Shown: positions 176 through 64,000, counted from the stretch's first letter. The stretch is 64,000 nucleotides of DNA from Euglena gracilis (GCA_039621445.1 CP154954.1:45115847-45179846), one strand, 5' to 3'. Numbers and translations: made by a program. The notes: generated by a model from the letters alone, not told the origin.

Positions 176-4685
<4,510 letters not shown>

Positions 4686-12330: not shown

Positions 12331-12496
<166 letters not shown>

Positions 12497-12783
12497 GCGT
12501 GTGCGTGTGTGTGTGCATCCGTGCGTGCAGGAACCGCAAATTGATGGTCTTTTTGGGGGGGGGGGGACAGCAGCCCAACCAGACTTCATTTCAAAGAACT
12601 GCACACTTCTGGCTGGTCATGTGGATCCCCTCCGGGTCTGCTCCCAGTAGTCAGGCAATGGCTCAAAAAAAAAACCGGCCATGCCCAACGGTCGGACAGC
12701 TGGAATCAAACCGACCACCCCGCAGCCCATGGCCCCCCAACCCACACACAGACCACGTCCCAACACTCATTGTGGCTCTCCAG

Positions 12784-32500: not shown

Positions 32501-35500
32501 GTTGTTTTCCTGAAATGAGCCAACAATGCTGTTCGGCGCCAAAGGCGCCAAAAGGTGCTATTTTTAGCATTTTCGCGATTTTGGCCATTTTGGGGAAAGT
32601 AAGTGGGTACCGGGACCCCCCCCCGGGGGGGACCCCAGGGGGTGGGTGGGTGGAGGGGATCCCCCTCCCCCCCAGCCTTAAAAAAAACCCCTGGATGGGC
32701 CGCATGTGCCACCGTATGGCGACATTGTACCAGAAGCAGGGCAACCAGGTCCGCGCCCTGGAGCTGTATGCCAAGTCCCGGGCGGTGAAGGAGGCTGTAC
32801 TGGGACCGGGCCAGCCGCTGGCTTGCGCGCCACGGAGCCTGCAAAGGTGACACAACCCCCCCCCCCCAATAACAAACCCCCCGAACCCCGATTTCGAGTG
32901 TCCGAATAATAAACCGGGGGGGGGGTTATTTGGGGGGTTTATGCGGTGGTGTGCGTGCACACACATGCGGCATCGGGCACATGTGCACACAAGCACACGG
33001 GCATGTGCGCACATGCCAATTGCGAACGTCTCGTGTCGGGCATGAGGACAAAGGCGAAGAGCCTAAGCAAAGAAGGTGTATCATCATCATGATTATAGTT
33101 GTGAATGATACCCAGCGTTTATACCTGTTTGCTTTTCAACCCAGACGTGACAACCAAGAAACTCCCCCAGTCCTGTCCCCAATCTGTGGGCCACACCCTC
33201 CAGTTTACAGTCCCCCACCACCTCACTGTCCCGAGTAGTATCCGAGCTACTCCACCCCTCTCCTTCCCTCCCCACCGGCCTGAGTCCAGGGAGGGGGGCT
33301 CAAGCTCGAACCTCCTCGGACATTTTTAAGCTCCCCCCCCCTCGAAAGAACCCTCCTTGGACGACCTGGAACGATATTCTAAGAGGTTCAGCACCCTCCT
33401 CGAACGACCTCGAACGACATTATGTGACACCAGGGAGTTTGTTATTTTGGGTTACACCAAGCAGTTGCATACAAAGGGTGCAAAAGGGAGTTGCAGACAC
33501 AGGGCAATAAACCCCCCAAATTAAAACAAAATAAGAACCCCCTGGGCCGATCGAGCAGAAATCCATTAATAAGACACCCCCCTCCAACGGTGCAAAGCGC
33601 TGGAGACGGTGAAAATTTTCCCTAAAAAATTACCAAAAACCCCAATTTCAGACACAAAATGATGAAATTTAAAAGTTTTTGGGATTTTGGAGTTCAGAAA
33701 GAAAACATGGATAATTTCAAATTGACCAGTTTACACATCGTGCGAAGCGCCAAAGGAAAAATTTAGTGTCGCTTTGGTAACCAGAAAATTATGGTTTTTT
33801 CCCCTGGCCCGGGTCGGTCAAAGAGTAAGAGACCCCCAAAAATAAGACCCCCCCCTGGAGGTTTCCCGCAGCAGCGAACCCCAAAAAATAATAATTAGAC
33901 CCAGGTCTTATTTGGGGGGGTTACCTCGAACAACGTTGCAGGAGGGTCTCGAACCTCCTCGAACGACACTTGAGGCGGGTCCCGACCCTCCTCGCAGGTC
34001 GTTGGGGCTCGTCCGAGGAGGGGGGGGGGCCTCCGCCCCCGGCCCCTCCCCCCACCACACCCCGTCCCCCGGCCGGCGGCTGGGCCCAGGGACCCGGTGG
34101 TGGGGGCCATCTCGTTCGTGATGGCGCAGCTGTTCCAGGCGGAGGGGCAGTACCCGCAGGCCCTCGAGGCGTACAACCGCGTCCTGGCCATCCAGTCCGC
34201 CCCGCCGGGCCCCGTCTGCCCCTGGCGCGCCGTGGCATGGACCTCCCGAGGGTTGGGGGGGGGGAGGTTGGGGGTTGGGTTCAGGGGGGTGGCGTGAGGT
34301 GGGGGCAGGCCGTTGCGTCCGGTATTTTCGAGGAAGGTCGCACTCCCCCAGGGGTAGACCCACCCACGGGAACCACACACCAACCCCACAAGGTGAGTGT
34401 ATGTCCCCACAGCGCTGGAATTACAGCAGAGTTACTCACCCGGCCCGGGGGAGCAACACAAGAGTACTGGTGTAAGGGGTCCCTGGCCACTCGCCACACA
34501 GCAATTTGGGCCAGAAGCGAAGTTAGCGCCGGCCATAAACAGACAAGAAGCCTTAGTGCAACCAAGGGGGGTGCTAATGGGCGGGCACTTTCAACTCCGA
34601 GTTGGGGTGTTGGGGTGGGTAGTGCTATGGCACACCCCCTGGCGCCGATGGCCCAGAAGTGTCCACAATGGACCGGCGGAATTTTTACTGGACCCCAGGA
34701 GGAGGAGGAGGAGGAGGAGGAGGAGGGTCTGCTGGTAGCCCCAGCTTGTGGAAAAGGCTTTCCAGTGCCATACACAAAGCTGCAGGATCTTTTTTGACGC
34801 CCAAAACCTGCCAACTTCCCTTTTTTTTGGCATTTTGGGATTTTTTTGGGGAACAAAGCCGGCCAAAGTAAACCCTCGAACCGTTTCACGCCCCATCGCC
34901 CCAGGTTTTTCTCCAGTCTGGACCCCCCCCCCCCAAGGCGACGGGAAATCCTGGGGGGCTCAGCTCTCTCAGCTCTGCCCTGCCCAGTTCATTGGCCACG
35001 GTGCCAGGGCGACACCTCCGCATGGCCGAAGTGTACAGCGCCATGGGCAGCCACACCGGGCAGTGGCCCGCCCACACGCTGCGTCCGTGGCACTGTGGGG
35101 AAGGGGTGTGTGCTTGGGGGGGGTGCAGTTTGGTGTGTATTTCAATCTCGGGAAGGGTTATTTGTTTCTTCGGTTTATTGTTTTCTGAACGTGCGAACGT
35201 GCATTCTGAAAGTGAACGAACTTGCACGTTTTTTTTACCTTTTCAGAATTTCCCCCACCTCCCACCCAGGGGCCGAACGTACCTACATCAGCATCCTCCC
35301 CAAAAAAACTGGTGCTGGTGGCTCCCTCAGCCATTCTGGCACGCGAGGGGGGAGAGAGGCGCCACAGGAGGAGGCTGCGTAGGAGGAGCACCCCCACCCC
35401 CCACCCCCACCCCCAAGCGGCGGGCCGGTGGGGTCGACGCCATCGACATGTACCGCAAGGTGATCCGCATGCAGGTGGAGGAGTGGGGCGCCAACTCCCT

Positions 35501-37143
35501 CGTGGTCGGTGAGGCCAGGGCGTCGGCCGCGAGGCCCAGGCACGTCCCCCCCCCCCGCCCCTGGCCATGCCCCACCCCTGCCCACTCAAGGCCAGGGAAA
35601 GAAAGAAAAGACAAACAGCAGTACGTAGTTACGATGAATGAATGCATGCATTCATTCAAGCCATGTGCGGGGCTAGGCACGCATCTGGCCCTGACGGCCT
35701 GCTCCGGGTGATAAAGGGTCTCCGCAGGGGGGCACTGGCATTTTGTTGTGCTTTTTTTGTGTTTTGCATGTTGGCAAAGGTTGTGGTTTTGGGATTTTTT
35801 TTCGTTTGTGTGTGTGCATGTGTGTGTGTGTTTCCCCGCAATTTCCCAATTCTTTGGTGGAATTTTTTTCGACCTGGAAAAATCCACATTTTGGACCTTT
35901 CGAAGTCCTGTCCAACAGAAAAGTGTACATCCCGGGAGATCTCCTGTAGGAACGCAATTTGGGAACGCAACCCAAATTTTCCAGTTTTGTGTTGCGTTTT
36001 CGAAGGTCCATTTTGCATCCCCCCCCCATCTGATTTAGGTTTCTGTCCCCGCCCATTGCTTCCTTGTCATTTTCAGGACGTTGGAACTGACTCCCCAAAT
36101 GGTCAGAGATGGCTGAGGCCCGAAACGGATTTAAACGGGCCGTATCGGGGGCCAGAGTGGCACGACGGCCAAACCACGGGGACCCCCGGGAAATGGTCGG
36201 GCCGCGAACGCGAGCGCCCCCCCCCCCCCCGTCCCCGGCCACCCGCCCCCCGTCCCCCGGCCCCGGCCCCGCCCCCAACCCCCGGCCCCGCCGCCCTGGG
36301 GGCGACGTACGCCCGGATGGCGCAGGCGTACACGCTGAGCGAGGACACGGAGTCCGCCCTGGCGGCGTGCAGCACCGCGCTGGACATCCGCCTGCTGTCC
36401 CTCGGCGAGCGGCACGACGAGGTGGTGGGGACGTACGAGCAGATGGGGAAGCCCAGGGGGCCCCGGGGCCCGCCAGGGGTTGGTTGCGGTGCCCCGCCGC
36501 CTGTCTGGGGGTGGGGGTGCTGGGTTGTGTGGTAACCCATGGCACTCGCGGCGCGCGTGACGTGTGTGACTGAGGGCCGCCACGAAGGGGAGGAGGGTTC
36601 AATTGTGTGCCAGGCTGTGGCTGGCGGTGGTCCGTTCAGGAGATGGCTTGGGGGCAAAGGGCTGAGGGCGTAGTAGGAGCCGCCCTGCCTGCGTTGTGGA
36701 AGACCCACGGGGACCCCCAGATGGCCATGAAGGCGTTTGAGAAGGCGATCCAGATCATGACCCGTGCCCAGGCCTTCCCCTCCACTGCCCCCATCCCATT
36801 TTTGGCCATTTTGGGAATTTTTGGAACAACATCAGCCAAAACCTATTAAAAACCTCATTTCCAACTCGGCACGCAGCGCTGGAGAAAATATTTTTTTTTC
36901 TAGTTGAGGGGACCCTCGGATCCCCCCCCCGGGGGGGGGGGGGTCTGGCTGGTCCATTTTTTCCAGCGCCCAGCCGATTGGCTAGCCAGTACCCCCCCCG
37001 GGGGGTCCTTAAGCAAAGCCTGCTCCCTCCCTCGACCCCCCCCCACGCCCCACCACACGCATGCACACAGCATTGTCGGCACCGCATGTTATTTTGTTAA
37101 TTTTGCCATCTTCCCCACTCAAACAAAACGGCCCATTTTTGCC

Positions 37144-43628: not shown

Positions 43629-44425
43629 CAGGCATTTGCTTACCCCCCCCCTATGTTCAACGACCCCCCTATGTCCAATGACCCCCCCCCCCCCCCGGTC
43701 AGAGGACACCTTTTCGGAGGTTTGACCAAATTTTTGGTCCCGGCGTGAAGCGCCGGGACGAAAAAATTTGCCCAAAAATTGGCCAAAAAATTTGTTCAAA
43801 ATGCCATTTTTTGACACTTTTTGGACAAAAAAAAATTGTCAAAATTGCCCAAAATTTTCGGCGCGTAGCGCCGGAAGGGAAAATTTGGGCATTTTTGGGT
43901 GGGTAGGGACCCGGGTACCCACCAACTTCCTTTTGACCCCATGTCCAACGACCACCCCCCCCCCCCGGTCAGAGGACAGAGGTTACCGGTCATTGGACAT
44001 AGGGGGGGGGTAAGGGTTTGCAGTACCCCCTGGGGCAGCTAGTCCAAATTTGGCTAGTGGGATTTCTAGCAGACCCCCCCGGGGGGGGGGCGGGGTCTGC
44101 TAGCAGGGCTAGCTAGTGGGAAAAAATTTTCCAGTGACCGGCGCGAAGCGCCGAAAATTTTTTTGGGACCCCCAAAAATGGCCAAAAATGCCCGTTTTTG
44201 GCCATTTTTGGGAATTTTTGGAACAAAATCAGCCAAAAACCTATTAAAAACCTCATTTTTCCTCCGGCGCACAGCGCCGGGGGAAAAAAAAATTTCCAGT
44301 CCAGGGGACCCCCGAACCCCCCCCCCCCCCGGGGGGGAGGGGGGTTCTAGCTAGCCCATTTTTTCCAGTGTCTAGCCGATTGGCTGGCCAGTACCCCCCC
44401 CCCGGGGTCCTTAAGCAAATGCCTG
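43629..44425. mobile_element. hAT-like MITE (14857 family) interrupted in its left TIR by a TA-duplicating MITE (43641-44012)
   Basis: CAGGCATTTGCT-TA[insert]TA-AGGGTTTGCAG ... CCTTAAGCAAATGCCTG; flanks ATCGCAAC / ATCACAAC (7/8). The insert has TIR TACCCCCCCCCTATGTTCAACGACC / GGTCATTGGACATAGGGGGGGGGTA. Confidence 0.88.
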
Positions 44426-44588
44426 ATCACAACACCTCAGTGAATCCACCCCATCGAAAAAAAATGGGGTTTTCATCTTCACACCACCAAGAACGTGAGT
44501 GTTTTTTTTTCCTCTGAGGAGAAATTGCGTGGAAAGCAGGTCTTCTAAGTTTGGCAACCCCAAAAAAGATCCAAAAAGGTCCTTCAAT

Positions 44589-48199: not shown

Positions 48200-51040
48200 T
48201 TTGACACGACCTCCAGCTTCAAATAATGAGCTTGGAAGGCCCAAAAAAAATTCCACTACTTCTTCACCTGCAAACCAGCATATTTCCACCATGAACACGA
48301 TCCCCTCTGGTGCTGTGGGGATTCCAATGGGAGGTGTCCACACACCCCCCTCCGTCAAACTTATTTGTTCACTCTGCCTGACATTCATTCACAAAGTCCT
48401 TTTCCCATCCAAAGAACATAAATTATTTTTGTGTCCAACCATGTGGGCTTTCCTCCCCACACATTCTTGCAACAAATGCCAGGTGCTTATGAGTGGGTTC
48501 TGTGGGAGATTCACAACCTCCTGCCACCGGTGGTACTGCCATCCTTTTCTTTGAAACAAAATGAAAAAAAATTTCACCCAGAGAACTGATTTTTTGCTTG
48601 GTTCTGGCTAGATCAACCCTGCTGTGAAGGGCTAGCAACCTCCAACAAATAATCAATCTCTTTCTGAGGCCTTTCAAATACCATTTTAGAGAGGGGCTCA
48701 AAATGTTTGTTCAACTGCATCCGAAACATTGATGGATCCCATTCACACATTGCACGCTATTTGAAGAACATTTAATGGCACCAACATGATCTCCAAGCTC
48801 AGTGGATCACTATTAATAGACAAGTTATCTCTGGATCTAGCATTAATATCTGGAACTGCTCTGTAAGCATCCTCCGGGGGGGTTTGCATAAACTGGTGGG
48901 AGACCCCTTAAATCTGCCCTCAGTGCATCTCCTAGAAAACCCCCTTGGTGGGGCAATCTACAAATTAACTTTTGAAATATCTTGTTGCCGAGAGTACAAG
49001 TACATGTCCACATCTGGGGTGATGTATTTTTGAAGTATTTCAGGATCTTGTGAAAGATGTTTAGGTTTCCTTGGTCACGGAGTCTGCCACTGCTCCTGGG
49101 TGGTAACCCAAACCACTTGCAAGTTGAATTGTTTTCTTGGCAATGGTACAGAAGTGGTTTCAAAATGTAATTTAGATATGGATTTTTGCCTCCTCATTTC
49201 GTGAGCTACCTTACAGATACCTGGCTGTCAACGTGGAGAACAATGGTTTCTTTGGGTTTTGCCACTTCCTGGAACCCCCCCCCCCTGAGGAAGGTTCTTT
49301 TGTGAGAAGTTTCGGCGGGCTCACTTGGTGTTTGTGATTCGCCTTCAGTGTCCCTTCCTCCCCTCTAGGTCTGCCTCGGGGGAGTGCGAGACACCTTGGG
49401 CTTTGCACTTCCCCCAACTGAGGTTGACTGTGCACCACTCGGGGAGGGGGGCGGCTCCACGTAAGAAATTTTAATCTTAAAGCGTGCTCCAAGTTTTCTT
49501 GGGCACCCAACTCTGATAGTGGGAACAAAAGGCTTCCACAACTTCCCATTGAAAAATCTCACAAACCAATTCTGAGCTCAAACACATTTTTTCCATCAAG
49601 TTCACTCCTGCCCCCTGGCAGAGGGATGGCCACAAATACGGGAATCAATCCCAAAACTTCTAAGACTTTTTATAGTTAAAGATGCAATGGTGTCCGTCTT
49701 AATACCCCTGAAGGAGGTTTGGGGGGTCAAAAACACATGCCCCCTGTTGGGCAATGGTCTTTTTTGCAAGGGCCACATATTCTTTAAAAAATGAAAGGGA
49801 GAGATTTAGGTAATTTTTGTTAAATAAACCATTGTTTACAATCTTGCTATTTTTTTTACCGTTCCTCCGAATTTTTGCATAAGGAGTTGAGCCTAGTAAA
49901 CTTGCACAACGTCTCATTTCTGATAAATGAGAATATCTGAGCAACATCAATAATGGACAATCCAGAATCAAGTGCAAACGTAACTGTGACAGGTTGTTCT
50001 GAAGGGTGGTAAACGGAACTGAGGCCAGACGATCTGCAAAAAGCTCAGTTCTATTGTGGGGCAGGTCAGAAGCTACTTCGTTTACACGCCATTTCTCAAA
50101 ATTTTAAGAGATCAATTTTGCAAAATGGTGGATTTGCACACCAGGTGGGGTTGGGACCACATCCGCCATTTCCCATGGGGTCTAGGATCAAATTGTGTAA
50201 TTAAATTAATTTCACAGCCAGGTGTAGGAAGGGCATTTCAAAACAATGCCTCTCAAGGACTGTTCTCAGAAGGAGCACCTGGCAGTGGTGGAAGGTCTGG
50301 ATAAAACTTGAGGTCGAAATGTGAATGATTTTTGAAGGGACGGACCTGCGTGCCCTTCATATAAACGAAAAGGAGTTCATGTCTGCCGTGGAAACAGTAA
50401 ACGCTTTGGTCTCCCCCCCCCGGAATCGTTTGCACCGGAGCACAGAGCCAGCCAGCTCCGGTAAAATCGCAGCACGAATGGTACAAAGTCTAACCTTCCC
50501 AAAAACATTCACCTTCAAAAAGACGGCAAGGGAGGCGTTGCGTCACTTGGTGTTTGTGCTTCGCCCTTGGTGTCCCTTCCACCCCTCTCGGTCTGCCTCG
50601 GGGAGTGTGATTACAAGTCAACCACTGCCTCGTGCGGCGGCACGGACGTTGGACAAATTTGGCCAGACGGAAAAGGCAAAGGAAAATGTCACCACAGGTC
50701 GATCAGACTCCCTCCACTCTCTCCATTCCCCTCTTCCAGGGAACAGATGTTTCCAGCATGGGCTATGGCAGCCCTTCAAATCAACAGCTATGGCAACCAG
50801 CAAGCGTCATGGCAAGGCGGCACGAGGCACATGTATCAAAATCATGATTTGCAAATGGAGGGGAAATACAAATTTTATTTGTATTTCCAGGTCGAACAGA
50901 CCTCCCGTCCCCCCTTTTGTTCACCCCTCAGGGTCAGTGGGAGCCGGACAGGGCATCAGCCCTTCATTCGAAGGCTTTAGGGCCATCAATTCAAAGACCA
51001 AAATGGAAGACACCTGGGACAACACATCAAACAGACCTTC
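48200..51040 (-). pseudogene. Heavily decayed non-LTR retrotransposon RT remnant
   Basis: Minus-strand fragments in RT order: KAF (~50400), RGIVLKCP (~50240, cf. RGVRQGCP), LFADRLA (~50035, cf. YADDL), FALDSGLSI (~49965), and a WHLLQEC Zn-knuckle-like piece (~48475). Many stops and frameshifts. Confidence 0.45.
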
Positions 51041-51041
51041 T

Positions 51042-51179
51042 CCCTAAACCGTAACCCTAACCCTAACCCTAACCATAACCCTAACCCTAACCCTAACCCT
51101 AACCCTAACCCTAACCATACCCCTAACCCTAACCCTAACCCTAACCCTAACCCTAACCCTAACCCTAACCCTAACCCTA
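51042..51179 (-). repeat. Interstitial telomeric repeat (TTAGGG)n, ~22 units
   Basis: (CCCTAA)n on the + strand with a few variant units. Confidence 0.95.
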
Positions 51180-51180
51180 C

Positions 51181-51428
51181 GTGCTGTGTGGTTTCTAATG
51201 GGAGCTGCCCACACCCCCCTCTTGCAGAATCTCTTTGGTGAGGGAATTCACTCTGTCTGAGGTCAAAGGCCTTTTCCCATACAAAAACCATAACAAAATA
51301 TTTTTGTGTCCAACCATGTGGGCTGTCCTCCCCACATATTCTTGCAATAAATGCCATGGGCTTATGAGTGGGCTGTGTGGCATATTCATTACCTCCTCCT
51401 CTGGGGTACTGCCACCCTTTCCTTTCCT
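51181..51428 (-). repeat. Diverged second copy of 48310-48552 (3' region of the decayed retroelement)
   Basis: Shared blocks GTGCTGTG, TTTTTGTGTCCAACCATGTGGGCT, TTCTTGCAA.AAATGCCA, CTTATGAGTGGG and GGTACTGCCA. Confidence 0.85.
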
Positions 51429-52194
51429 TTGGCCTGGACGACCTTTTGGGTGGGGGTCCCCCCCCCGACACCTTGGTGCGGACCAGGTTCTGAGTAGTGC
51501 TGAGCTCTTGATAAGCGCGCACCCAACCCCTTCGTTGACCCCCCATATACACCGGCCCACAGTGTACGTCCAAAGCTTTCCCTTTTTCCCTTTTTGGGAC
51601 TTTCTGTAAAAGCCTTTCGCTTTCGCCTTGGTGCGCAGCCTACTTATGGTAGGGAAAAGTCTTTGGAGTAACGAAAAGTGGTTTTCCCCTTTTCTTCCCA
51701 ATTCCCCAAGAAGCAAAGCACAAAGCAAAGACTCAGAAGTTCCTTCTGAGATCAAGTTCGATTGTTCCGAGGGTTTTTCCCTCTGACAAAACCAATGGTC
51801 AAACTTGGAATTGATGACAGTGAAGAATACCACCTGTGGGGGAAGGAGAGAAAAGTGCTGACGTGTCCAGGGGCAGAGCCCAGAAGGGTCTGCCACGATC
51901 CTACCAGCTGTGGTTTTCCACAGTGGTGCGACCGTCACAGAACCCACTCTGCAGATATCCTACAGAGCTGGGACGTGCCTGGTACACATCCCCCTCCCAG
52001 GGCTACGCCCGATTTCCTTCATGGACCAGGGTTTCCCAGTCCAGTCAGGATATCTGACGCTGCCCTAGGTGGGGTTCACCTCTCCATTCGGTGTCTCTCC
52101 TTTCCGCACAGTGGCATCCACCCAAAGCCCAAAAACGCGCAAAAGGTTAGCCGCGTTTCGCGGTTACCTATTAGCCGTTTCGGCTTAGGTGGGG

Positions 52195-52630
52195 TGTGAA
52201 GAAGCCCACTGTGTAAAACGGGGCTTGGCAGGTTTCCTGACAAAGTGTCCCATCCACCCACTTTGGGTGTGCCAAAGGCACGCGGGGTTGGTCAAGCGAT
52301 TTGCTGAAAACCCGAGGGGAGAGGTGTGGAAGGGGGGGGCAGGCTCCTATCCTGGTCATACCCGGATAGGGCTCCTAGGCGGTCATATCCGCACTAGGAA
52401 ACAAAAGCCTACTTACAAAACCGACTGCCGGCGACAGCTTTGCGGGGGTGGGGGGAAAGTAGGGAGGACAGGGGGGCTGGCTTAGGCCAGAACAGAATTT
52501 TTGCTGTCTGGCAGCCTTAAGGGCCTTAGGGCCGAAAAGTGACAAGTTGGCCTATTATTACGGCGTGCGCGCTGTGTGCTGTGCGTCACTTAGCGGCTTG
52601 CCAGGTTTCCCGGCTGCCAAAGTCTTCACA
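52195..52630 (-). repeat. Candidate 3' LTR
   Basis: Bounded by the 8-bp inverted repeat TGTGAAGA ... TCTTCACA, 265 bp past the accessory ORF stop. No convincing polypurine tract, and the partner LTR is not in the window. Confidence 0.35.
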
Positions 52631-52895
52631 GCAGTAGCTCCTTCACAACGCAATAAGAGGCGATTACCTCTTGCAGACGGTTTCCGTCCGCATGGCCATT
52701 GGCAGAGGGGCTGGTGGCGGGGGGGGGGGGGGCTCTTGGATGCTTCCATCCAGAGCGTAGAGTGACACAGACCCAGGTTCATCCCAGGGCTGTTTAGCGA
52801 TTTCCGCTACCATTGTATATATATGTATAGGATATGGATGTCCAGGCTCCATGAAGGCACTTACCTTACATGAGCCTGGTAATGCCGTTTCGGCA

Positions 52896-55800
52896 TTACA
52901 TCCGTTCCAGCCGCCAATAATCATGGCGGGAGTCCAAGGGATCTTCCACAAGGACCATATGGAATTGTGGTGGTGGTGGCCTATCTACGAGCCAGGTTTC
53001 TGGCGATTCGTATTCGAAATCAGGTGCCACCCAGTCCCGAACCCATCCTTCGGGGACTGGATGCTTGGTTGCACTCGCTCTTTCCGCGAGGAACCATTGC
53101 AGTTTCTCCCAGAATTTCCTGGGCAGAGTTGCTGACCAGATGAAGTAGTTCATCCTTGGGTGATTGGCCGGCACCTGCGGGGCATTCCCCGGGTGGAAGT
53201 CAATCGGCATGTGATAGGCGCATTCCGCCCGGACTGTATGGGGTCGTAATACGGCCCCAAGCCAGTCTTTCCAGGTCATCCCGTGGTTTTCGGGTGGCCA
53301 TTGTGGCAGGCACCAGCGACCGTTTCGGTGCTGGTTTTGGAACAGGCGGAAAAGTATCTTTTCCCTGTCTGCTGTCTCCCAGAGGTAAGGTAATCTTACC
53401 CCTGCCTCCTCAGCAGCGAGGCGTATCGCCCCACTGTCGATCTGCCACCCACGGGCCATTCCCGTGTGGCGGTAGTCGTCCAGCTTGAGGTTGGCATACT
53501 TGAAAAAGTCCTTGAACTTTTTGTTCAAGGTGGAGTATTCCTCCAGTGGCTTCTCGGCACTTGGCACGATTGTGCGTACTGCGCCTTCCGCAGTGTGCCA
53601 GAAGGTACCTCGAAGGCAGTTGACGCAGAGAACTGGTACATTCGTACCGTCTCGGTCCGTGTAGCTGAAATTGTGCTTGTGGGTCCAACTGTCCACGCAC
53701 TTGGCGCATACCAAGGCGGCACAGTTAGGGATGTATACATCCTTGTGGAACGATTTCCGATCCACAGGGTTGCACACATGGACGAGGGGTAATCCCAGGT
53801 CAAGTGCACTGTTGTACATCTTGTGGCATACAGTGCAAAGCCACACAAAACGGTTTTCCGTTGTTTTGTCGATGAGGAATTCCTCACCGAAGAATTCGGC
53901 CAAAACACGGGGAGATCTGGAATTGTAATAATTCCAGGTCACATTCTGATCAAAGGACCATTTCCGTCCCTGACAGAACAGTGGCTCAATCCACCGGTTA
54001 AGGCATTGCTGTGTCCTCAATTTATGTGCGATCATCATGTACCTGTTTTTCAGGTCATGAATGTCAGGGTCATCCTGATTGATCGCGTTCCAGTCGATGA
54101 CAACTTCGTCTTCTGAAGGTGTCTCGGCTGTCGAGGCGCGGGATTTTCCCTGCCCCTTTGTCGGAGGTTTCGGCTGTGAGGTTTTCCCATAGCCGGATGA
54201 CGTGACGTGCGTGAATCCTTGTCCCGAGGTTAATCCCCGAGAAGAGGATGCAGCACTCTGGCCGCCAGCACCACCACCGCCTTTCGGTGGGGGCTGATCA
54301 CCAGATTTCGGTGTGGGTTTGCAAGGTGCGGCGCCCGGCTTACTTTTCGCCGGGGCCTTCGGGCTTCCGGCTTCCGGAGTCTCCGAGGGCCGCCGCTCGG
54401 CGTCTCGCTTGCTTGCCCACGTGCGTGGTGACGCTTGGGACGGGGGTCTTTTCCCCGACGCCGAACGTCGTTGACCTTCAGCAGGGGTTTCCCGAGCTGA
54501 TGGTCGTCCTACACGCTCCTTCGCGGCTCCCGAAGGTTTCCCAGGGGTAGCCGTGGGGGATGGTGTTGGTGTAGGCCTAGCCTGTGCACTTCGCGCTGGC
54601 TGAGCCTGTGGTGGAGGCATGGACGCCCGCTCGGCCTGTTTTTCAGGCGCCGGTGTCCGTGTGCCTTGACGCTTCTCTGCCGTGACTGTGGCTGTACCAT
54701 GAGATACGGGTTCATCCCGTGCCTCCGGTGGTACCGCCGGTGTCGATACAGGTTCATCCTGTACTGACACGGCTGGTGTTGTCTCCACAGTCATTGCTGT
54801 CCGTTCGCCTTCCGTCCGTGTCGCTTCCGACACTGGCGGTGGCGCTGCCGTTGGGGGAGGTTCATCCTCCACCATGGCTGCAATGTCAGATGTGTCTTCC
54901 GTCAGCTGGGCAGTTTCCGCCGCAGCTGTGGAAGAACTGGCCGCAGTGCCACGTGGAGTGACTACTGCGATCAGTGACCGTAAACCACCGAGTACGCGTC
55001 CGCCCAGTGAGGTGCGTCTCTCCTCACCTGAAGTGGGCTCCTCGGCTGGCTCCTCTGTTAACGGGGTTTCCCCGGAAACAGGGAGCTTGAGGCGTAATAC
55101 CTCAGGCGTGTGGGGTACCGTTTCCGGCGGGTTTTCCCGCGGAGGGGTTGGTACACCCGCTGTACCCAGTGAGGCTGGTGATAGAGGGACAGGTGTCATT
55201 TCACCTGCTTGTGATCCTGGGTGTTGGGCGGTTTCTGCCACAGTATCCAGCATCACTACCGATGGGCTACGGGTTTCCCGTGCCGGAGGTTCCGTTGGCT
55301 GAGGTTCATCCTCAGCCATTGGGACCTCCTCCTCCTCATCCGCTTCCGGAGAGGATTCGGCTGCGTGTAGCTGTGCTGCAGAACGCGGGTCTTTCCCGCT
55401 CCTGTAGCACCCTTGTGCGTTTGACAGGCGGAAAAAGCTAATACTTTCACTCCTGTCAGAGTTGGGGTATGGGGGCGGCCACGTCGCTCTCACCCAGCTT
55501 TCGGGTGGAGGCTGTGGTTGATCATCGTCGATCAAGCAAAGGTCTTCCCACTGCCGTCGACAATGGTCAGTCACGCCAAACTCTCCTGTTTCTTCCAGGA
55601 ATGCTGGCAGTGGCAACGCGTAACGAGGGACTTCCCCTTCGTGCGCCGCGAAAAACATCTGAAAATCCTCCCATATCAGGATATTCCCGAATTGGGTATC
55701 CAGGTGTTCCTGGAGACCGATTTCGGCCTCTTCCCAGTCTGGTCGCAGGTTCATCCTGCGCTGGTCTGGGTCATTGGGTCTGGCGTTCACCTCCATATAT

Positions 55801-58336
55801 CCCCGAGGCAACCACTTTCTGTGGATTTCCACATCGGCGGTCATATATTCCAGGAAATATATGTAGACCTCCAGGACGTAGGTAATCCACGCCCTGTGCC
55901 AGTACTGCTGCAGCAGAAATATTTTCTGCCGGTGCTGTTTCAGCACCTTTCGGTCTTGCGTTCCAATCTGGGGATTCCGGCACTGATGCAGGAGGAATCT
56001 CCTGGTCGGCTGGCTGCCGGCATTCTCGGCAGACGGAGGCGGTTTTCCGCGTTCTCCGAAACCCCAGAAGTCAACGATGTGGACTTCCTTGCAAAACTGG
56101 CATTCCAGTTTGTACCGCTGGGGGTACGCGAGGTCCACGTCCAGTACCTTGAACAGCATGCCATACATGCTGTCCAAGAAGACTTGGAGGTTGTTCGTGA
56201 ACATTACCGCAGCCTGCGCCTGGAGTTTCTCCGGCAGGGGGTAATACTTCCACTGGATTCCCAGTGCGCTGACCGAAAACATGTGGTTGAAGATTTCCTT
56301 CAACTGTGCGACGAACGTTTCGCCGTCTTCACAGGTATTCAGGCAATCGATATACGTCAGACCGTTTCGGTCGGTAAAAATGCCGAAATTCTGGCAGGGG
56401 TATCCCAACCAGAACCACAGTTCCCAGAAACCAGGCATCTGGTCCAGGACAACTTCATTCGAATGAGGGTATCCCTCGAACGCATGAAGTTCGGCACTGT
56501 AGAAAAAACGTTTGCAGTGATCGTTCATACGATTCTGCACCACTTCGAGCACCGCATCCGGTGGTCGGTGGATCACGTTGCCTGCCCTTGTGAACTTTTG
56601 GAGATCTTCGTCGATTTTCGGCCAGATCTCCTCCAGCTACTTGAACACTGAGGCAACGTCATAATCCTTCGTTTTCGAAGGCTCGGCGGCTTTCCCGCCC
56701 TTACCTGCTGGGGGTCCGGCAGATTTACCGCCTTTGCCTGGAGCTAGCCAGGCGGCTTTTCCGCCTTTGCCAGGTGGGGCTTTCCCACCTTTCTCCTGGC
56801 CTTTTCCTTTCCCCTTACCTTTGCCCTTTCCTTTACCCTTGCCCTTTGTGTTTGACAGCCATTCGAATGTCGCCCGGTATGGGTCAAAGTATTCCCAGTA
56901 TTCTGGGTCTTCTGGCGTAAACACTGGGTAAGTCACGGATTCCGTGCTTGGCGTTCGAGCAAATTCCTGCTCAGCATCACCACGATTCGAGTAAACCGGT
57001 GCGACTGGGGATGGTCGGGTTTCCCGACGTGCCCGTTCTGCCGTCACGTCGGGCGCTGGCGGAGCTTCCTCCTCAGCGTCGACGTGCATCGCCGCGGGCG
57101 GATTTTCCGACCTCGGCGAGCGGCGCTGTGGCTGCGGCGTCAGATTTTCCGGGCCGCGGTCACGCTTGCCGGCGGCAGAGCTTGTGGGTCGTGCTGGTGG
57201 CGCTTCCGCCACAGCCACGTCCCGCTGTCGCGCTGGTTGACTTGACCGTGATGGAGCTGGCTCCTGTGAGAGCCGACACAGCAGCATCATACTGCTGGCG
57301 CTCTTCCCGTGTCATTTCCGCCCGGGCAGGGTATCCCTGGCCAGCGGAAACAGGGGGGCGACGTGCGATTTGTCGTTGGATCGTCACAGCATATTCATAC
57401 TGTTGACGCTCCTCCTCAGTCTCGAACGGCCGACCAGTCCACGGGTTAACGGGTTCATCCCGTGCCGGGGGAACTGGTGCCGCACGAGGCGCTGCCGCGG
57501 CTTCCCGCGGACGAGCGCTTCGGGCAGAGTCAGACGTCGGGGGAGGATTTCCCTCCGCAGGACGTCGTGGGATAGGGTCAGGTATGGTTGGGTGGGGTTG
57601 AGGTGGATATACGTACTGATCCCGTGGCATTGGCGCCTCCTGGGGATAATCCCCAGAGACGGTGTACTGAGACACAGGCTCCTGCGCAGGATAATCCCGC
57701 CGGGGCATGCGCTCAGGGGATCGAAAAATACTTTCTTTCACACGTGGGTGTTCACTCCGGACAGGTGCTTCCACTGTCTCTTCCTCGGGTAATCCGGGGG
57801 AGTGAGCACGAAAATGTGCAGTGTAAGTGCCAACTGGTGGTACCTGCCGTGCGACCTGTGGCGGGACTTCCACGCCCAGGTCACGCATGGTAATGTCTGC
57901 CGCGAATCCCGACGCGTCCGGGTCGGTGTAAATACACCAGACCGGTCATCGTCGCCTGGGCGCACATACACCACAGGGCTGGAGGGGTATTCGCGATGGT
58001 CAAAACTTTACGGCAGTGGTCATCCCACAATGCCTGTGTGAGTTGGTCTGGTGCCGGGTTTGCGCTCATACGCATAACCCGGTTCATCGTCTCCGCCGTG
58101 CGGTGGATCATCACACCCGCATACGGTGGGAGGCGACGAGAGCCTGATGGCTGAGATGGCCGCGCTTCCGCGGGCATCTGGGTCATCCTGCTACTGCTGC
58201 TGGCTTCAGGGTTTCCCTGAGCCGCAGTCCGTGCAGGTGGCTGCGTACCGTATCGGTACGCATACTGGTCAGGTTGAGGGTGAGTGGTGGGGTGGTAAGG
58301 CGGTCCTCCGCCTGGCTCCCTTCCGCCGGGCAGCAT
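52896..58336 (-). CDS. Accessory ORF of the retrotransposon (~1,800 codons when joined); unknown function, Cys-rich RING/Zn-finger-like C-terminal domain
   Basis: Track ORFs 57881-58336, 57738-57974, 57160-57888, 56637-57290 and 52896-56576 chain together. The breaks are short-repeat frameshifts (~58003, ~57943, ~57270) and one in-frame TAG (56637-39). Cys cluster CTVC..C..H..C..CAKC..CVNC at ~53615-53840. Confidence 0.7.
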
Positions 58337-58427
58337 AATACAGCCCGGGGTCGGTACGGTAGGATGTTTGGGTTGTTGGTTGTAAGGTGTGTGAGGGTAA
58401 CCGCTTGAGTATTATTTGGTAAAAAGT

Positions 58428-58478
58428 CTGCGGAAAGAAAGAATGATAAGAATCAATGATAAAAAGAAGAGAAAACAA
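58428..58478 (-). promoter_or_regulatory. Candidate 3' splice / spliced-leader acceptor upstream of the accessory ORF
   Basis: Minus strand TTGTTTTCTCTTCTTTTTATCATTGATTCTTATCATTCTTTCTTTCCGCAG, between the pol stop (58499) and the ATG at 58336. Confidence 0.6.
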
Positions 58479-58498
58479 CATGGGTTTCCCATGCGTTC

Positions 58499-61400
58499 TC
58501 AAAAACTTGTCATGGAAACATCAATGTTATGTTTCTTGTTCCACAGCTTCCAATCTTGCTGGACATACCCAACAAAACTGGTTGCTGGCTCCCAAGTGTC
58601 CTCCTCGGGCCCATACCCTTTCCAGCGGACCTTCCAAAGGTGCATACCTTTGTCGATTTTGTGATCGATAATTTTATCGACTACAAAGTCGTCCGTCTCA
58701 GGTAATCTGGAACGGGGTTTGAAGTGCAAACACGGGATGGGTTTCCCATCCGGTGGCGACAGGTATGGTTTGAAGTCGTCCATATGAACGTCCTCAACAC
58801 CATTCGGTAATGCAACCTTGTAACGCCCGCTGGTACCTAGTCTTTCTAGGATTTCACAGGGGCCGAGCCAGAGGGGGTCCAGCTTGGAAGACTGCATGCG
58901 AGTACGGCTATTCCGTACCCACACGCGGTCACCGGGACTATACACAGGTGACTTGAAATTCTGCAAAAACGATTTCCGTTTTGCTGCATGAATATCAGTC
59001 ACGCGCTTCTGGACTGCAGAACGTAGATTTTCTACTTCCGCAAACCAGGTCTCGCAACTGACACTCGTTCGGGCGGGTCTCTCCGAAGGGACATCCCCTA
59101 TGGCCGGAGGGTCCCGTCCGAAAACTAATTTATAGGGGGAGTGAGGTAAAACCAACCCTGGTAGGGTATTGATATAAAACAAAGACCATGGTAGAACTGA
59201 TATCCAGTTGCTGCGCGAGTCAGCCAGTGAAAGGCGAAGCATATTCACGACGGATTTCACGGCTGCCTCGGCTCTACCATTGCCTTTGGGTCGGTATATA
59301 ATGGAAAAATGTTGCTCGATTCCGAGTAAACCGCACAAAGTGGTGAAAAACCTTGAAGAAATCAAATGGTCTTGATCACTCACGATTTCATTCGGTAAAC
59401 CCATTAAGCAAATGCATTTCTCCAAAAATATAGTTGCCAAACTTTGGGCAGTCAACCCTGACTTCTGGCATGGAATGGCTACAATGTACCCACTCAGCCT
59501 GCAGACGACAACAAAAACGTAATCGTAAATTTTGTCGTCCGTTCCTTTGCACGGTTCTAATTCCAGAAAATCCATGCAGAGGGATGTAAAAATGTCAGGG
59601 GGTACGGGGAAAAAGTCCATCGTACCAGGGGGGGTACCTCTGCGGGGTTTTACCGCTTGACAAATTTGACACCGTTGCGCTATTCGCAAACAGCGTGAGT
59701 AAAGCTCTTTCTCGCTCAGGGTTGTGCAGTACCTGCGGCCCACCAACGAAAGAAGTTTGGGGGCCCCAGGGTGACCATGGTTGTGATAACACAAAATCAC
59801 ATCATCAACCAGGTCCTGGGGATACAATATTTGTAACCCGATTCATTGCGAAAAACCAACCGTAAAGGTGAAAGAGTGTAATTGTCCAGCACTTCGCCAT
59901 TACGAAGTCTGGTGACAATGGTGTCATACACCGGATCACGACTATAATCCCATTCGCGAAAGAACAGTGGGGAAGGGGACTCCGTGCGCGTAATACGCCG
60001 GGGCCCGGACGTGCTTCCACGTCGGCGCCTTCCTCGCACTGGTGCGACCAGGAATAGTTGTGAAACGGGAAAAGAATCCAAAAGATTATCCGCAGCGTCG
60101 TTTCGACGTGCGTAGTCGTCAGCTTCCTGACTTCCATGAAAAGTCGCGTCTCCCTCATCCGGGTTCCCAGGGTAATACCAAGGGGCCCGACTGAGCGGAT
60201 CCGCTACTTTTTGTGTGTGACCAGGGGTATAGATAACCACAAGGTTGAATTGACTCAAGAACTCATGCCATCTGCATCGCCTTCCGACCGATGACATGGC
60301 CTTGTTCAAATCCTCGGTGTACCAGTGTTGGAGACTCTCATGGTCGGTCTTGACGAGGATCTGGACGAGGCTGCTGGCTACCCAGCTTCGGAATTTCTGG
60401 AGTATAAGCACGATTGCGTAGGTTTCCTTCTCGCGTATACTCCAGTTGACTTGACCTTTTCCATCGTCGCCCTGTAACTTTCTGCTGAAGAAAGCCACAG
60501 GTCGGAGCTCATTCGCCGCATTATGCTGGCTAAGAACTCCGCCAACAGCGTAATCGCTGCTGTCGACTTCCAACACGTATGGTTTGTACGGGTCCGCGAT
60601 TTCGAGGACAACATTTTCCAAAAGCAAAACCTTGATTTTCTCAAGGGCCTCGCGCATTTGGTCATCCCAAATGACTTTGGTGTTGTCAACAGCCCGGTTT
60701 TTGAGCTGTTTGGTGAGGGGCACCGCGATTTTCGCGAAGTCCTTCATATAAATCGCGTAGTATTGGGCTAATCCCAAAAACCCTTTGAGGTGTGTTGTCG
60801 TTTTGATTACCTCAGGGGTCCATTTCTTAATAGCTTCGAGTTTACTCGGAGCGGCTTTCCGCTGTCCATTGCTGAGGATGTGCCCGCAAAATTTTACAAG
60901 TATCCGAAACAAATGCATTTTCGCGCCTTTCGCGAAAAGCACATGTTTTTGAAAAGCGGCTAATACCGCGCAAACATGGTGGAAGTGTGTGACGAGGATA
61001 TCCTCGCTCGATTTTGCGGATGGTGGTGGTGTTCCCACCAGCACATCATCAATGTACACAATGGCAAACGGTAAATCGCGTAGAACCCATTGTATCATGC
61101 GCTGAAACATGGCTGGGCCATTCTTAACACCCATGGGGAGTACCGTCCATTGGTACACACCGTTGGATGTCACGAATTCCGTGTTAGGTTGGGAGTCAGG
61201 GTGTAAGTGCATTTGGTGAAAACCGTCCTCCAGATCGAAAATTGACCACAACCGGTTTTCCGATTGTTTGGTGATCAAATCCTCGATCAGGGAGAGCGGG
61301 AAGGGATCATCCCTTGTTTGGGAGTTCAGGTACCGGTAATCCAGCACCAGCCTCCATTTCTTCTGACCTGAGGGGTCTGGGGGTTTAGGAACGACAAATG

Positions 61401-63632
61401 CTTGGGATGTCCACTCGCTTTTCGAGGGTACGATCCACTTGCGCTGTATAAGCTTCTCAATCATTTCATTGAGAGCTTGTTCGCGTTCTCCCGAACAACG
61501 AAAAAATTTCCGGTGCATTGGCTTGGCTCCATCCTTAAGCTCGACCTTACAAACACCGAACGGACCGCGTATCGCGGGGTCGATGTCGCACGCGTATACT
61601 GGATTTTCCAGCACACCGTGGATTTTGCGGGTAATCCGCGAACAGAATTCGGCTGACTTAGGATGCTGACCTGCACTCTCGATGACTGCGGAAACCGCCA
61701 GGGTATCCCTGGGGCTACCGAGCTTCCTCGGCACCGCGAATTCGGACATTCCGAATGCATCGAAGAAACATACGCGAAAAATGATTTCTTGCAAGGGTGG
61801 TAATATTTTACCACAAAAATCCTCAAAAATCGGTACATTAGTGGGTAAATCCCACCAATGAAAACATACATACGATAGTTGGGTGAACCATTCCGCTTCC
61901 GGAATGATGGGTATGAGAATAACTCCACGGGCTTCATCCCGCAGAATTTTCTCAACCGCACATTCGATAAGTTTTGGGGAGGGTGCATCCATAACACCGT
62001 ATCATTCCAAAATTTATCAAATGCGTTGGAGTGTTGTGACCAATGACATGGCAAACGGGCATGTGCATTGGATGAAAAGGCATCGATTTCCAATGCCAAA
62101 TCAAAAGAATCAGCCAATGTCGCGATTTTGGAAAACCATCGTTCCAAAATGCGATATTGACCAAAATTAAAAGCATTCCGTACGCGTTTCGCGTATTCAT
62201 GCACCCGATTTTCGGGTTGAAGGGTAGAAACACAATGAATGGATCCACAAACATGCGAGTTGTCTTCCACTACCTCAAGGGGTAATCCCAAGGGAGTTTG
62301 GACAGGTTGGGGGTTTCCCCATTCCGCATCAAATCCGTACCAGGTGTGATCGCGATTGTAGTTAGGAATGACGCTTTTCGCATTTCCAAACAACGAGGTT
62401 AATCCGCGTTGTTGGAGTACTCGGTGTATCTCCGCGCATTGCGGGCTACAACCAAGTGTATCATGGCGTGTGGATTCCGTATTCGGAATTGTGATTAGTG
62501 TCGGAGTTTCAACTAAACATCCACAATCGAAATCCGATTGGGTGGAAATTCTCCTGCAGTGCACACATTGGAAGGAAGTGTGTTGGTGTGACAGGTGTGC
62601 GTGTAAGTGGGTGTCGATGGCATTAGCCGGTGAGTCTTGTACAGGTGTGCCTGGATTCGGCACAACTGGTGGGAAACGGAGTGGTGGTGTAGCTGGGCGA
62701 CTACTCGACACCGTAATTACTTCAGGCCTTTGGGCTTTCGTCTTGTAACCCAGTGAAACGGCGGGGGTACCGCTACTCGCTTGCCCTGCCTCATGTGGAA
62801 CGCATGTTGGTGTGTCATTGGGCAGGGGGGAGGCTTTCTCCGTACCCCGGGTGTGGAAAACGGTTGGTGGTGTGGTGGATAACGGTGTTGCCATTGTGGG
62901 TAACGGTGTTGGAAAAGTGGTGGTCATCATTGCGGATGCCAACGGTGATGGTGGTTTGGGTGTCAATGAAGTGGTGGGTGCTGTGCGCAAACCGTGGGAG
63001 TGGCAATCCACAACCAATCGGTACTGGTGTAAAAATGGGTATCCCAAAATTACGTCAGACCCGTGAATTCCGGACTCGTAACCCCAAATATTGGTGAAAT
63101 GTTGTAATTGTGGGGGTTGTGAGTGATGCTTCGGAATGATGGGCAAGAGTATCTCGAGCACACATCCCAAATCACCACCACACATGGGGGTGTTATCCGC
63201 GGTTGTAATTTTGATCGGTTTCTTGGCGCTTACCAAGAGCGGGGTCGGTATCAACCCCAACCGAAAGAGCAGTGCAATGCGACAACCAGTGTCAATGAGA
63301 ATTTTAACTTTGGTGGAGAAATTTTGAATGCGGATTTCCGCTTGGACAAGTAATTCCATTGGTGGTACGCAAAGTGAAGGGTCTGGCGGAAATACGTTTG
63401 CATGCCAGCTCTCCCATGAACCCTTTCCTACTTTGCTCAGCATTCCGAGCGGAAATGTGGAGTGGGGGGTAGGGGACCCGAAATGATTCCGGGTACTGAC
63501 CGTGAAGGCGGATGGGCAGGGGGGGTAAGGTTGATCAGGTCTTACCTCCATCTGTTCATCAGCCCAGAGGGCCTGTGCCCTCGGACCTCGGGCTCCCCTA
63601 CTCCAAGTCCGAACCGGCCGCATAGCCGGCAA
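58499..63632 (-). CDS. pol: Pol polyprotein PR-MTase-like-RT-RNaseH-IN-CHD, with two 1-nt frameshifts
   Basis: Protease LIDTGC (~63285-63299) and ILGYPFL. RT WRLVLDYRYLN, FDLEDGFHQ, PMGVKNGP, YIDD (61045-56). RNase H EVDSSDYAVGGVL, REKETYAI, TDH. Integrase HNHGH..CQIC, MDF/SDQD/GRAE, GPCEI. Chromodomain VDKIIDHK..WKVRWKGYGPEEDTWEP. The ORF pieces join if one base is added at homopolymers near 61975 and 59820. Confidence 0.93.
61750..62165 (-). CDS. Dam/DIRS-type DNA N6-adenine methyltransferase-like domain within Pol
   Basis: QYRILERWFSKI..LEIDAFSSNAHARLPCHWSQHSNAFDKFWNDTVLWMHPP/xKLIECAVEKILRDEARGVILIPIIPEAEWFTQL matches the phage-Dam/DIRS pattern: W.L...F, [IL]D.FA...NA, [DN]AF...W, W.NPP..I..V..K, .L+VP......W. 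Recognised by eye. Confidence 0.75.
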
Positions 63633-63999
63633 TGGACTTTTTGGTGGAATAGATGGAATTCAATGAGCGCACCGCCATTCGGGCCTCATTAAATTCCCCG
63701 TCCGAGGTCTCATCTCCCTCCCTGCCCGAAGCCGGGGTGTCCTCCTCCAAACAAGACATCTTGAAACTGACCTTTTGCCGGTTGGAGGAGTAACCACGGT
63801 CATCGCGGCGCTTACCGCGATTTCCGTAGCCGGGCCGGGGGGAACGAGATCTGGGACATTTGGATGCGTGGTGATCTTTGGAACCGCAAAGTGAGCAACG
63901 GGCTTTGTGGCGGGATTCCGCATAACGGGGGGAACGGTATTCCGTTCGACCGTCAAACCGTCGTGGTGAACGGGTTTCCCGTCGACCATGACCGGTGTA
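63598..63999 (-). CDS. gag: Gag C-terminus with CCHC zinc knuckle
   Basis: Open frame not in the ORF track: YTGHGRRETRSPRR...ARCSLCGSKDHHASKCPRSRSPR...AAGSDLE*. CX2CX4HX4C at 63856-63897; TAG at 63598-63600. Confidence 0.85.
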   Translation of the reverse strand, partial: YTGHGRRETRSPRRFDGRTEYRSPRYAESRHKARCSLCGSKDHHASKCPRSRSPRPGYGNRGKRRDDRGYSSNRQKVSFKMSCLEEDTPASGREGDETSDGEFNEARMAVRSLNSIYSTKKSIAGYAAGSDLE

Positions 64000-64000
64000 C

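Follow-up and report, generated by a model that had tools for sequence, protein, structure and literature searches.

A probable additional gene downstream of integrase in a very high-copy Ty3-type chromovirus of Euglena gracilis

An extra coding region after the integrase

The DNA analyzed here, a stretch of 64,000 nt from Euglena gracilis (GCA_039621445.1 CP154954.1:45115847-45179846; "the window"), carries a retroelement on its minus strand, which was traced by stop-to-stop open reading frames (ORFs) from the window end at 64000 down to approximately 51561. Approximately 5.4 kb of further coding sequence was found 3′ of its integrase, from 58336 to 52896 on the window minus strand (sense for the element). 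We regard this extra region as probably a genuine gene added to a Ty3-type chromovirus of very high copy number, which appears to be of the DAM-LTR kind (long terminal repeat, LTR, elements with a Dam-like domain in Pol); its product may be an intracellular accessory adaptor that binds nucleic acid or chromatin. At the level of the family, the gene has approximately 1,800 codons, with the chromodomain on its 5′ side and the end of the repeat on its 3′ side.

The extra ORF begins with an ATG at 58336, 163 nt past the integrase stop (162-nt spacer, 58337–58498, minus strand), and ends with a stop at 52898–52896. It is longer than the integrase and reverse transcriptase-RNase H (RT-RH) frames combined. 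The preliminary description of this DNA had presented it as a 5.4-kb sense-strand coding region after the integrase; the coordinates and features were real, but the frame is broken in three places in the window copy, by two frame changes and one in-frame TAG. Frame A (58336–57884), which encodes a Pro/Gln/Tyr/Arg-rich N-terminus without a Pfam family at E ≤ 10, shares the phase of the integrase frame, with two stops in between. Frame B, open from 57945 to 57163, contributes a Pro/Ala/Arg-rich part with two EE(E)RQQY-x-AV motifs (57261–57930), the frame changes being near 57930 and 57260. Frame C, open from 57311 to 56640 and ended by the TAG at 56639–56637, contributes 56640–57260 (P 14%, A 14%, G 11%, K 10%) and ends in a basic (KG)n/PGKGGK repeat at approximately 56700–56850. 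The remaining 56636–52899, also on the minus strand, is one uninterrupted frame of the last 1246 codons (protein P0001), an open frame far beyond chance.

Public contigs were aligned to positions 49000–64000; 94,167 pieces fit, 28,140 of them at least 99% alike. Run X1 is DNA, X17 is recorded as an RNA library and may contain DNA, and X15 and X16 are guessed to be RNA. Length differences from the window copy were seen in many other copies: one letter at 57930 and two at 57260. The difference at 57930 accounted for 155,734 of 266,299 in X1 depth and for all depth in X15, X16, and X17; that at 57260 accounted for 70,906 of 179,109 in X1, for all depth in X15 and X16, and for none in X17. By phase arithmetic, the two differences bring frames A, B, and C into one frame. 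Thus, the window copy is a slightly decayed member of its family. The TAG was matched by none of the 40 differences listed from a total of 1,033, a small and selected sample.

Membership in the repeat

Summed X1 contig depth was 755k–1,331k over pol, 235k–680k over the extra ORF (52507–58518), 579k–970k over the 1.4 kb after the ORF, and 3.9k–87k over the flank (49000–51003). Depth over the ORF was therefore tens of times above that of the flank, and the ORF belongs to a very high-copy repeat. Contigs joining the integrase to the spacer or ORF were found in three further runs (X17, 58038–58938; X15, 58338–59279; X16, 58434–59245). The deeply covered sequence after the ORF is a noncoding part of the repeat (51561–52895, minus strand). 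The end of the repeat at approximately 51561 is marked by a loose end in X17 and by a 2,447-nt X15 contig that fits only 51561–52005. The ORF ends 1.3 kb before this point, in the position of the additional ORFs (aORFs) of other LTR elements. A candidate 3′ LTR of 424 nt (51986–51563, minus strand) shows the purine run GGGAGGGGGATG, followed by TGTAC...GTACA. Within the window, tblastn found no second copy of the ORF, and there was no second copy of the 1.5 kb after the ORF, so no LTR pair was seen. The view that an extra, non-Env ORF occupies the env position of an LTR element was upheld by the junction contigs, by the repeat-level depth, and by a hairpin signature that runs through the whole element (see below).

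An array of telomere type, (CCCTAA) x 22.8 as read on the plus strand (TTAGGG-type), lies interstitially at 51042–51179, approximately 380 nt past the 3′ end of the element. This array, the named relatives of the extra ORF, and the architecture of the element would all suit a euglenid host. Depth was also raised over 51200–51560, between the array and the element.

The host element

The element is a Ty3-type chromovirus, with RT, RNase H, and integrase in Ty3 order and a chromodomain at the integrase C-terminus (Pfam). RVT_1 and RNase H were located in 59797–62001 (minus strand). The integrase ORF (58499–59842, minus strand) ends in a TGA at 58501–58499; its coding part, at the end of Pol (58502–59842), matched rve (1.5e-10), Chromo (2.1e-10), SH3_Tf2-1 (4e-07), and Integrase_H2C2 (2.5e-06).

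The preliminary description had also spoken of a methyltransferase-bearing Pol. A Dam-type signal does lie upstream (PF05869), but it was weak (E 0.071; 13.2 bits, cut-off 28.1). The stretch concerned, between the protease region and RT (61464–62600, minus strand), is cut by a frame change in the window copy and contains the words DAFSSN...WMHPP, which we take to be typical of the DIRS-type methyltransferase domain. The weak signal would agree with an element of the DAM-LTR kind. No DNA_methylase match, the sign of a cytosine DNA methyltransferase (DNMT), was obtained with Pfam in pieces of the extra ORF (E ≤ 10) or in Pol (E ≤ 0.01). Membership in the EpiLTR group, which combines DAM, DNMT, and chromodomain, was rejected with the DNMT domain not found.

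The gag-pol region of the window copy is itself split into four frames, with changes at 59817, 61975, and 63574 (minus strand). In the contig comparison, other copies differed in length by one letter at each of these sites; thus, the family appears to have a single gag-pol frame.

The encoded protein

The N-terminal part of the predicted protein is rich in Pro, Ala, and Arg (P 13–17%, R 10–11%), and the Lys/Gly repeat after it includes an 18-nt period at 56788–56847 (Tandem Repeats Finder). P0001, on the minus strand, can be divided into four parts. A globular block with CQFC..H..HQC (residues 1–400; 55437–56636), with P0013 and P0014 as relatives, is followed by a disordered linker rich in Pro, Ala, Ser, Thr, and Glu with recurrent DEP peptides (residues 401–850; 54087–55436). 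A Cys/His-rich module (residues 851–1035; 53532–54086; alignments A1, A2, and A4) and a Trp-rich C-terminal module (residues 1036–1246; 52899–53531; alignments A1 and A3; homologues P0005–P0008 and P0011) complete it. The Trp-rich module holds the conserved block PG-PPQ--ANHPR-N--IW--LPR-FW--LQ and was poorly modelled. In the globular blocks, GC was 0.62–0.74 at codon position 3 and 0.30–0.43 at position 2, a signature of coding sequence. The protein would appear to be mostly disordered, with putative zinc-binding modules. The preliminary description had named the Pro/Arg-rich N-terminus, the (KG)n/PGKGGK repeat, the CQFC..H globular block, the long disordered linker, and a C-terminal CTVC..CAKC..CVNC cluster before a Trp-rich domain; each was recovered, the cluster in the form CTVCH..HVC..NC..C..C..CVNC.

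No membrane-like segment was found (best 19-residue Kyte-Doolittle mean, 1.16), and no signal peptide, the N-terminus being Pro/Gly-rich, in agreement with what had been noticed earlier. Because it lacks both a signal peptide and a membrane segment, the protein is not an Env, and a retroviral or errantiviral Env, with its signal peptide and membrane anchor, was rejected. The same absence of secretion and membrane features suggests that the protein acts inside the cell.

In a search of 1.84 billion proteins, the C-terminal 417 residues had 11 matching cluster representatives at E ≤ 0.001; seven scored ≤1e-10 (28–63% identity), and none exceeded 431 residues. Two of the 10 representatives looked up were Euglena gracilis transcripts, and the rest were short ENA or JGI contigs. 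In the alignments, conservation at the protein level extended down to 23–47% identity, with Cys and Trp positions retained. The globular block of P0013 (JGI metagenome) differed from the window copy by six changes in 280 residues, whereas the first 36 residues of the linker showed approximately 14 changes and an in-frame 3-residue indel; the start of the linker is thus far more variable between copies than the globular block, which indicates that constraint differs by block. P0014 was 65% identical to the N-terminal block over 72 residues.

Several searches were empty. No Pfam family matched any part of the ORF at E ≤ 0.01 or, in ORF pieces, at E ≤ 10; PDB sequences searched with the A1 profile gave a best E of 0.76; and in the Atlas, scores for the C-terminal part were at most 0.83, with no usable match for the N-terminal block. 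No homologue of the N-terminal block was found at near lengths, and the A2 profile returned only two sequences already in A2, with low-complexity words filling the candidate list. Reading GYPCQNFG in the N-terminal block as a DNMT motif had no Pfam support, and an internal duplication linking the CQFC and CTVC blocks was not significant (score 24, shuffles 22.5 ± 4.2).

The Cys/His module and the RING question

The Cys/His clusters, described earlier as of zinc-binding type, were conserved: the signature C-x2-C-H..H-x-C..C-x4-C-x2-C..C-x-N-C was kept in six of the six family members that cover it. The conserved candidate ligands are C934, C937, H938, H953, C955, C972, C977, C980, C1004, and C1007, encoded at 53616–53837. 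The gene defines a family of proteins that had no annotation, marked by a new Cys/His signature.

The first rival explanation is that the protein is a true RING-type E3 ligase, or a Vif-like hijacker of the ubiquitin system, that destroys a host restriction or silencing factor. Ten conserved Cys/His residues suffice for two zinc sites, the best weak domain-model matches include RING modules of Slx1, the CTLH ligase, and RNF4, and RING clusters occur among the low-scoring Atlas rows (0.80). The RING consensus is C-x2-C-x(9-39)-C-x(1-3)-H-x(2-3)-[CH]-x2-C-x(4-48)-C-x2-C. RING, PHD, and ZZ spacings matched none of seven family members, the central cluster being C-x4-C-x2-C and not C-x-H-x2-C-x2-C, and the best Pfam RING model (zf_RING-like) reached E 1.8 in one of 11 members. 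With the domain model, Foldseek placed FYVE, PHD, and RING modules and ribosomal zinc proteins first (E 0.9–4), and the top VIA rows were ZZ modules (Nbr1, Z 3.8; CBP, 3.3; also BIG and p62; range 3.2–3.8), which are readers, not ligases, and scored as high as or higher than the RING rows (Slx1, Z 3.0; CTLH ligase, Z 3.0; RNF4, Z 2.7; also APC11). The Z values of all these ZZ and RING rows fall in the range that the tool calls common. With the 417-residue model, VIA scores did not exceed Z 2.8, and most of these matches fell on a helical part of low confidence.

Because the spacings fit none of the seven members, RING E3 membership is unsupported; the E3-like RING proposed in the preliminary description gained no support (fold matches, Z ≤ 3.8 and Foldseek E ≥ 0.94), the structure prediction and Foldseek comparison of the C-terminal models returned nothing at E ≤ 0.001, and we regard a ligase or ubiquitin hijacker as unlikely. 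The anti-silencing role proposed with it is a guess. In our reading of the models, the Cys/His-rich module may be a cross-brace zinc module with two metal sites and belong to a kind of its own. It resembles the ZZ, RING, PHD, and FYVE modules in being a small beta-rich domain with paired CxxC-type ligands, and its weak structural matches include the ZZ modules of Nbr1, CBP, and p62, the RING modules of Slx1 and RNF4, the PHD of TAF3, and FYVE. It differs from them in its ten conserved ligands over approximately 75 residues, outside these consensus patterns and the Pfam models.

Spacer, stop codons, and expression

The spacer contains a hairpin, CATGGG-aaa-CCCATG (58493–58479), starting 5 nt after the integrase TGA, and a second in-frame stop, TAA, at 58414–58412. 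A polypyrimidine tract (58483–58434) is followed by CAG (near 58429) approximately 100 nt upstream of the ATG at 58336; it is the top 50-nt pyrimidine window of the 12.6-kb sense strand (82% pyrimidine, 62% T). The tract and CAG form a candidate 3′ splice site or spliced-leader acceptor, and extensive trans-splicing has been described in E. gracilis (bioRxiv 10.64898/2026.05.21.726589).

The internal TAG (56639–56637) is followed, after a 5-nt spacer, by a perfect 8-bp stem (56631–56624/56607–56600) capped by a small AAA-loop hairpin (56600–56639, minus strand; centroid −13.8 kcal/mol); the folding z of the 76-nt stretch there was only −1.24. TAG and stem may together act as a readthrough signal. 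The ORF stop TAA lies inside a perfect AAA-loop hairpin with a 9-bp stem (52879–52899, minus strand). Each of the three real stops in this part of the element thus adjoins a perfect stem: a 5-nt spacer precedes the stem after both the integrase TGA and the internal TAG, whereas the final TAA lies within its stem.

We propose that the protein is made apart from Gag-Pol, most likely from a subgenomic RNA that would use the polypyrimidine-CAG acceptor, for which spliced-leader trans-splicing is one possible route. The balance between a short and a long form of the protein may be set by the internal UAG. The basic Lys/Gly tracts would hold the nucleic acid of the element, and the zinc module and Trp-rich domain would dock on a partner.

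The second rival explanation denies a separate gene: the extra region would be a C-terminal extension of Pol made by readthrough of the stop codon. Frame A is in phase with the integrase frame, and perfect stems follow the TGA and, in the same layout, the TAG, which makes readthrough a live alternative. The frame-A peptide upstream of the ATG at 58336 also shares the Pro/Tyr/His/Gln-rich style of the downstream peptide. Set against this, the TGA and the TAA both separate the frames in the window copy, the translated spacer would be Phe/Leu/Ile-rich, being encoded by the T-rich tract, and hairpins are so dense in the element that one near a stop is only mildly unexpected. Readthrough has, in our estimate, the same small chance as the RING reading.

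Hairpins along the element

The sense strand of the element (51561–64000, minus strand) is densely set with short perfect hairpins with A-rich loops. We counted 178 perfect hairpins in 12.4 kb (stem of at least 5 bp, loop of 3–7 nt). The most frequent loop was AAA (19), followed by GAAG (9), ATA (8), and ATGAA (6), and the loops were 48% A compared with 25% A in the element. AAA-loop hairpins with stems of at least 5 bp numbered 19, whereas Markov shuffles gave a mean of 0.26 and a maximum of 2 in 300. For hairpins with AAA or ATA triloops, the density per kb was 2.00 (gag-pol), 2.02 (extra ORF), and 2.99 (after the ORF), compared with 0.10 in the 51.5-kb flank on the same strand (extra ORF vs. 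flank, Poisson P = 1.4e-11). The shared signature shows that the rules under which the extra ORF evolved were those of the element as a whole.

In 150-nt windows, the flank had a mean folding z of −0.63, compared with −2.80 for the element on its sense strand (z below −2 in 63% of 82 windows), −2.35 for gag-pol, and −3.33, the strongest value within the element, for the extra ORF. Synonymous-codon shuffles retained approximately one third of the hairpins: 65 were observed in the 1246-codon frame (21.9 ± 4.2 in shuffles), 36 in RT-RH (10.9), and 21 in the integrase (6.2). Hairpins occupied all three codon phases, and the DEP peptides of the linker are translated ATGAA-loop hairpins. Thus, nucleic-acid structure appears to be selected, or generated, on top of coding throughout the element. 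The letters of other copies at 29 listed sites, too few to weigh, added hairpin pairs at three, removed none, and were neutral at 26. Rfam gave no match in the whole window, and a literature search returned no report of such hairpins in retrotransposons. Candidate causes are packaging or export signals, RNA protection, and use of the loop adenines as substrates of the element's adenine methyltransferase.

The arrangement recalls the concept of genome-scale ordered RNA structure (GORS). Many short stem-loops with a common loop type in coding sequence on the genomic strand also resemble the ordered structure and dispersed packaging signals of RNA virus genomes as treated in PMC6281560; here, however, the hairpins are in an LTR retrotransposon and have no known binding protein. 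The hairpin architecture may be the larger point: nucleic-acid structure appears to have shaped synonymous sites throughout the element.

These results also feed the third rival explanation, by which the 5.4 kb is mainly cis-acting structured RNA (for packaging, export, or protection) and the protein, or at least its disordered two thirds, is secondary. The folding z of the extra ORF, the threefold hairpin excess in its long frame over shuffles, and the origin of the DEP peptides favor it. Yet the 1246-codon frame, the in-frame indels, and the Cys and Trp positions retained at 23–47% identity show that the protein is selected too, and the extra ORF does not surpass RT or integrase in hairpin density. 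We consider this explanation improbable.

The fourth is that the region is a host gene taken up by capture, or else an unrelated element nested inside, and not a working part of the retrotransposon, an outcome that the preliminary description had itself raised. The C-terminal module also occurs in short stand-alone ORFs (e.g., P0010, with 431 aa, from a contig of 1,772 nt), the ORF has approximately half the depth of pol, and nested insertions and chimeric elements have been described in Euglena (bioRxiv 10.64898/2026.05.21.726589). Against it stand the junction contigs from three other runs, a depth tens of times that of the flank, a strand-specific hairpin density equal to that of gag-pol, a frame kept in other copies, and the lack of any other transposon domain in the ORF (Pfam), which together make capture or nesting quite improbable. 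An Env-like or fusogen protein, favored only by the position between pol and the 3′ end, is contradicted by the sequence, with its low hydropathy and missing signal peptide, and is hardly credible.

Weighing the additional gene

A number of results weigh against an additional gene in a working element. As to expression, runs of RNA type cover the ORF, and coverage cannot show transcription; no splice joint was listed for X15, X16, or X17; and a TAA lies in frame A after the candidate acceptor and before the ATG in the window copy. As to the repeat, X1 depth over the ORF was approximately half of that over pol, so many copies may lack the ORF or be more diverged there. None of the contigs listed bridges the ORF stop into the downstream part by at least 31 nt, contigs of X15 and X17 break at 51976/52005, so that the start of the 3′ LTR is a candidate only, and the 5′ LTR lies beyond the window. 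DNA of other copies was found neither in metagenome contigs (searched with P0001 and A3), nor in genome contigs (P0001 and integrase), nor in viral contigs (P0001 and A3). As to selection, eight of the 11 listed differences in the 1246-codon frame change the amino acid and three are silent, giving no sign of purifying selection. As to structure, the AlphaFold models were of low confidence, with a mean predicted local distance difference test (pLDDT) score of 52.1 (C-terminal 417 residues) or 59.7 (AF2 model of the Cys/His domain, 148 residues); neither model had a Foldseek match in the PDB at E ≤ 0.001; and VIA with the domain model gave no Z above 3.8 among 48,161 chains.

With these points counted, an additional gene remains the probable explanation, and depth above the flank, the junction contigs, and the shared hairpin density speak against an unrelated host gene or separate element. 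The function of its product is more tentative. Our first candidate is the handling of the element's highly structured genomic RNA, in export or packaging, as for Cer1 CERV or Rev, although we hold this at less than even confidence. Chromatin reading or targeting is a weaker possibility, as is, to the same degree, some function other than those named here; a hijack of the ubiquitin system is unlikely. A more specific version, in which the protein would read the approximately 180 hairpins on the genomic RNA in the manner of Rev and its response element (RRE) or of a coat protein and its packaging signals, and in which the UAG and stem-loop would control how much of a short disordered form is made relative to a long form with the zinc module, is speculative and carries a low probability.

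Comparison with known systems

To our knowledge, extra genes in the env position are common in LTR retrotransposons, and a function is known for almost none of them. Among published systems, the closest working analogue is Cer1 CERV of C. elegans, an env-position ORF without known homology that is expressed from a spliced mRNA and required for nuclear export of the genomic RNA (PMC10309623). By description, the two share a large ORF in the env position without Env homology; CERV has a TTTCAG-type acceptor before its ATG, and the present ORF has a candidate acceptor and basic repeats. They differ in size (517 residues vs. approximately 1,800 codons) and in host lineage. The aORFs of plant LTR elements (PMC7264820; Retand, PMC11963269) belong to another protein family and another host, whereas the present ORF is very large and has conserved putative zinc modules.

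The DAM-LTR and EpiLTR elements of E. gracilis have been described as chromovirus-like retrotransposons (bioRxiv 10.64898/2026.05.21.726589). The present element resembles them in its Ty3-like domain order, in the chromodomain that ends its integrase, and in the weak Dam-like stretch between protease and RT, and the nearest named relatives of its extra ORF are E. gracilis transcripts. It differs in that the available part of the preprint mentions no gene after the chromodomain, although its supplements may show full architectures; it differs from the EpiLTR subset in that their DNMT was not found here.

The family is very high-copy, with many near-identical copies, and belongs to a class that was only just described and that already carries chromatin tools, namely the chromodomain and the Dam-like domain. 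The extra gene offers a concrete handle on how such elements cope with heavily methylated host DNA and trans-spliced mRNAs.

Other observations in the flank

No Pfam family was found in 15 long ORFs of the flank. Homopolymer C runs of more than 100 nt and long (GT)n arrays occur at 2380–2590, 3407–3700, 12257–12620, and elsewhere. The flank also holds several dispersed repeat families (for example, 15004–15281 and 44149–44426, 90% alike). Two 91-nt stretches on the plus strand (643–733 and 35430–35520) are 78% alike and encode one and the same peptide (GADAIEMYRKV..QVEEWG..), possibly as exons of host genes that were duplicated.

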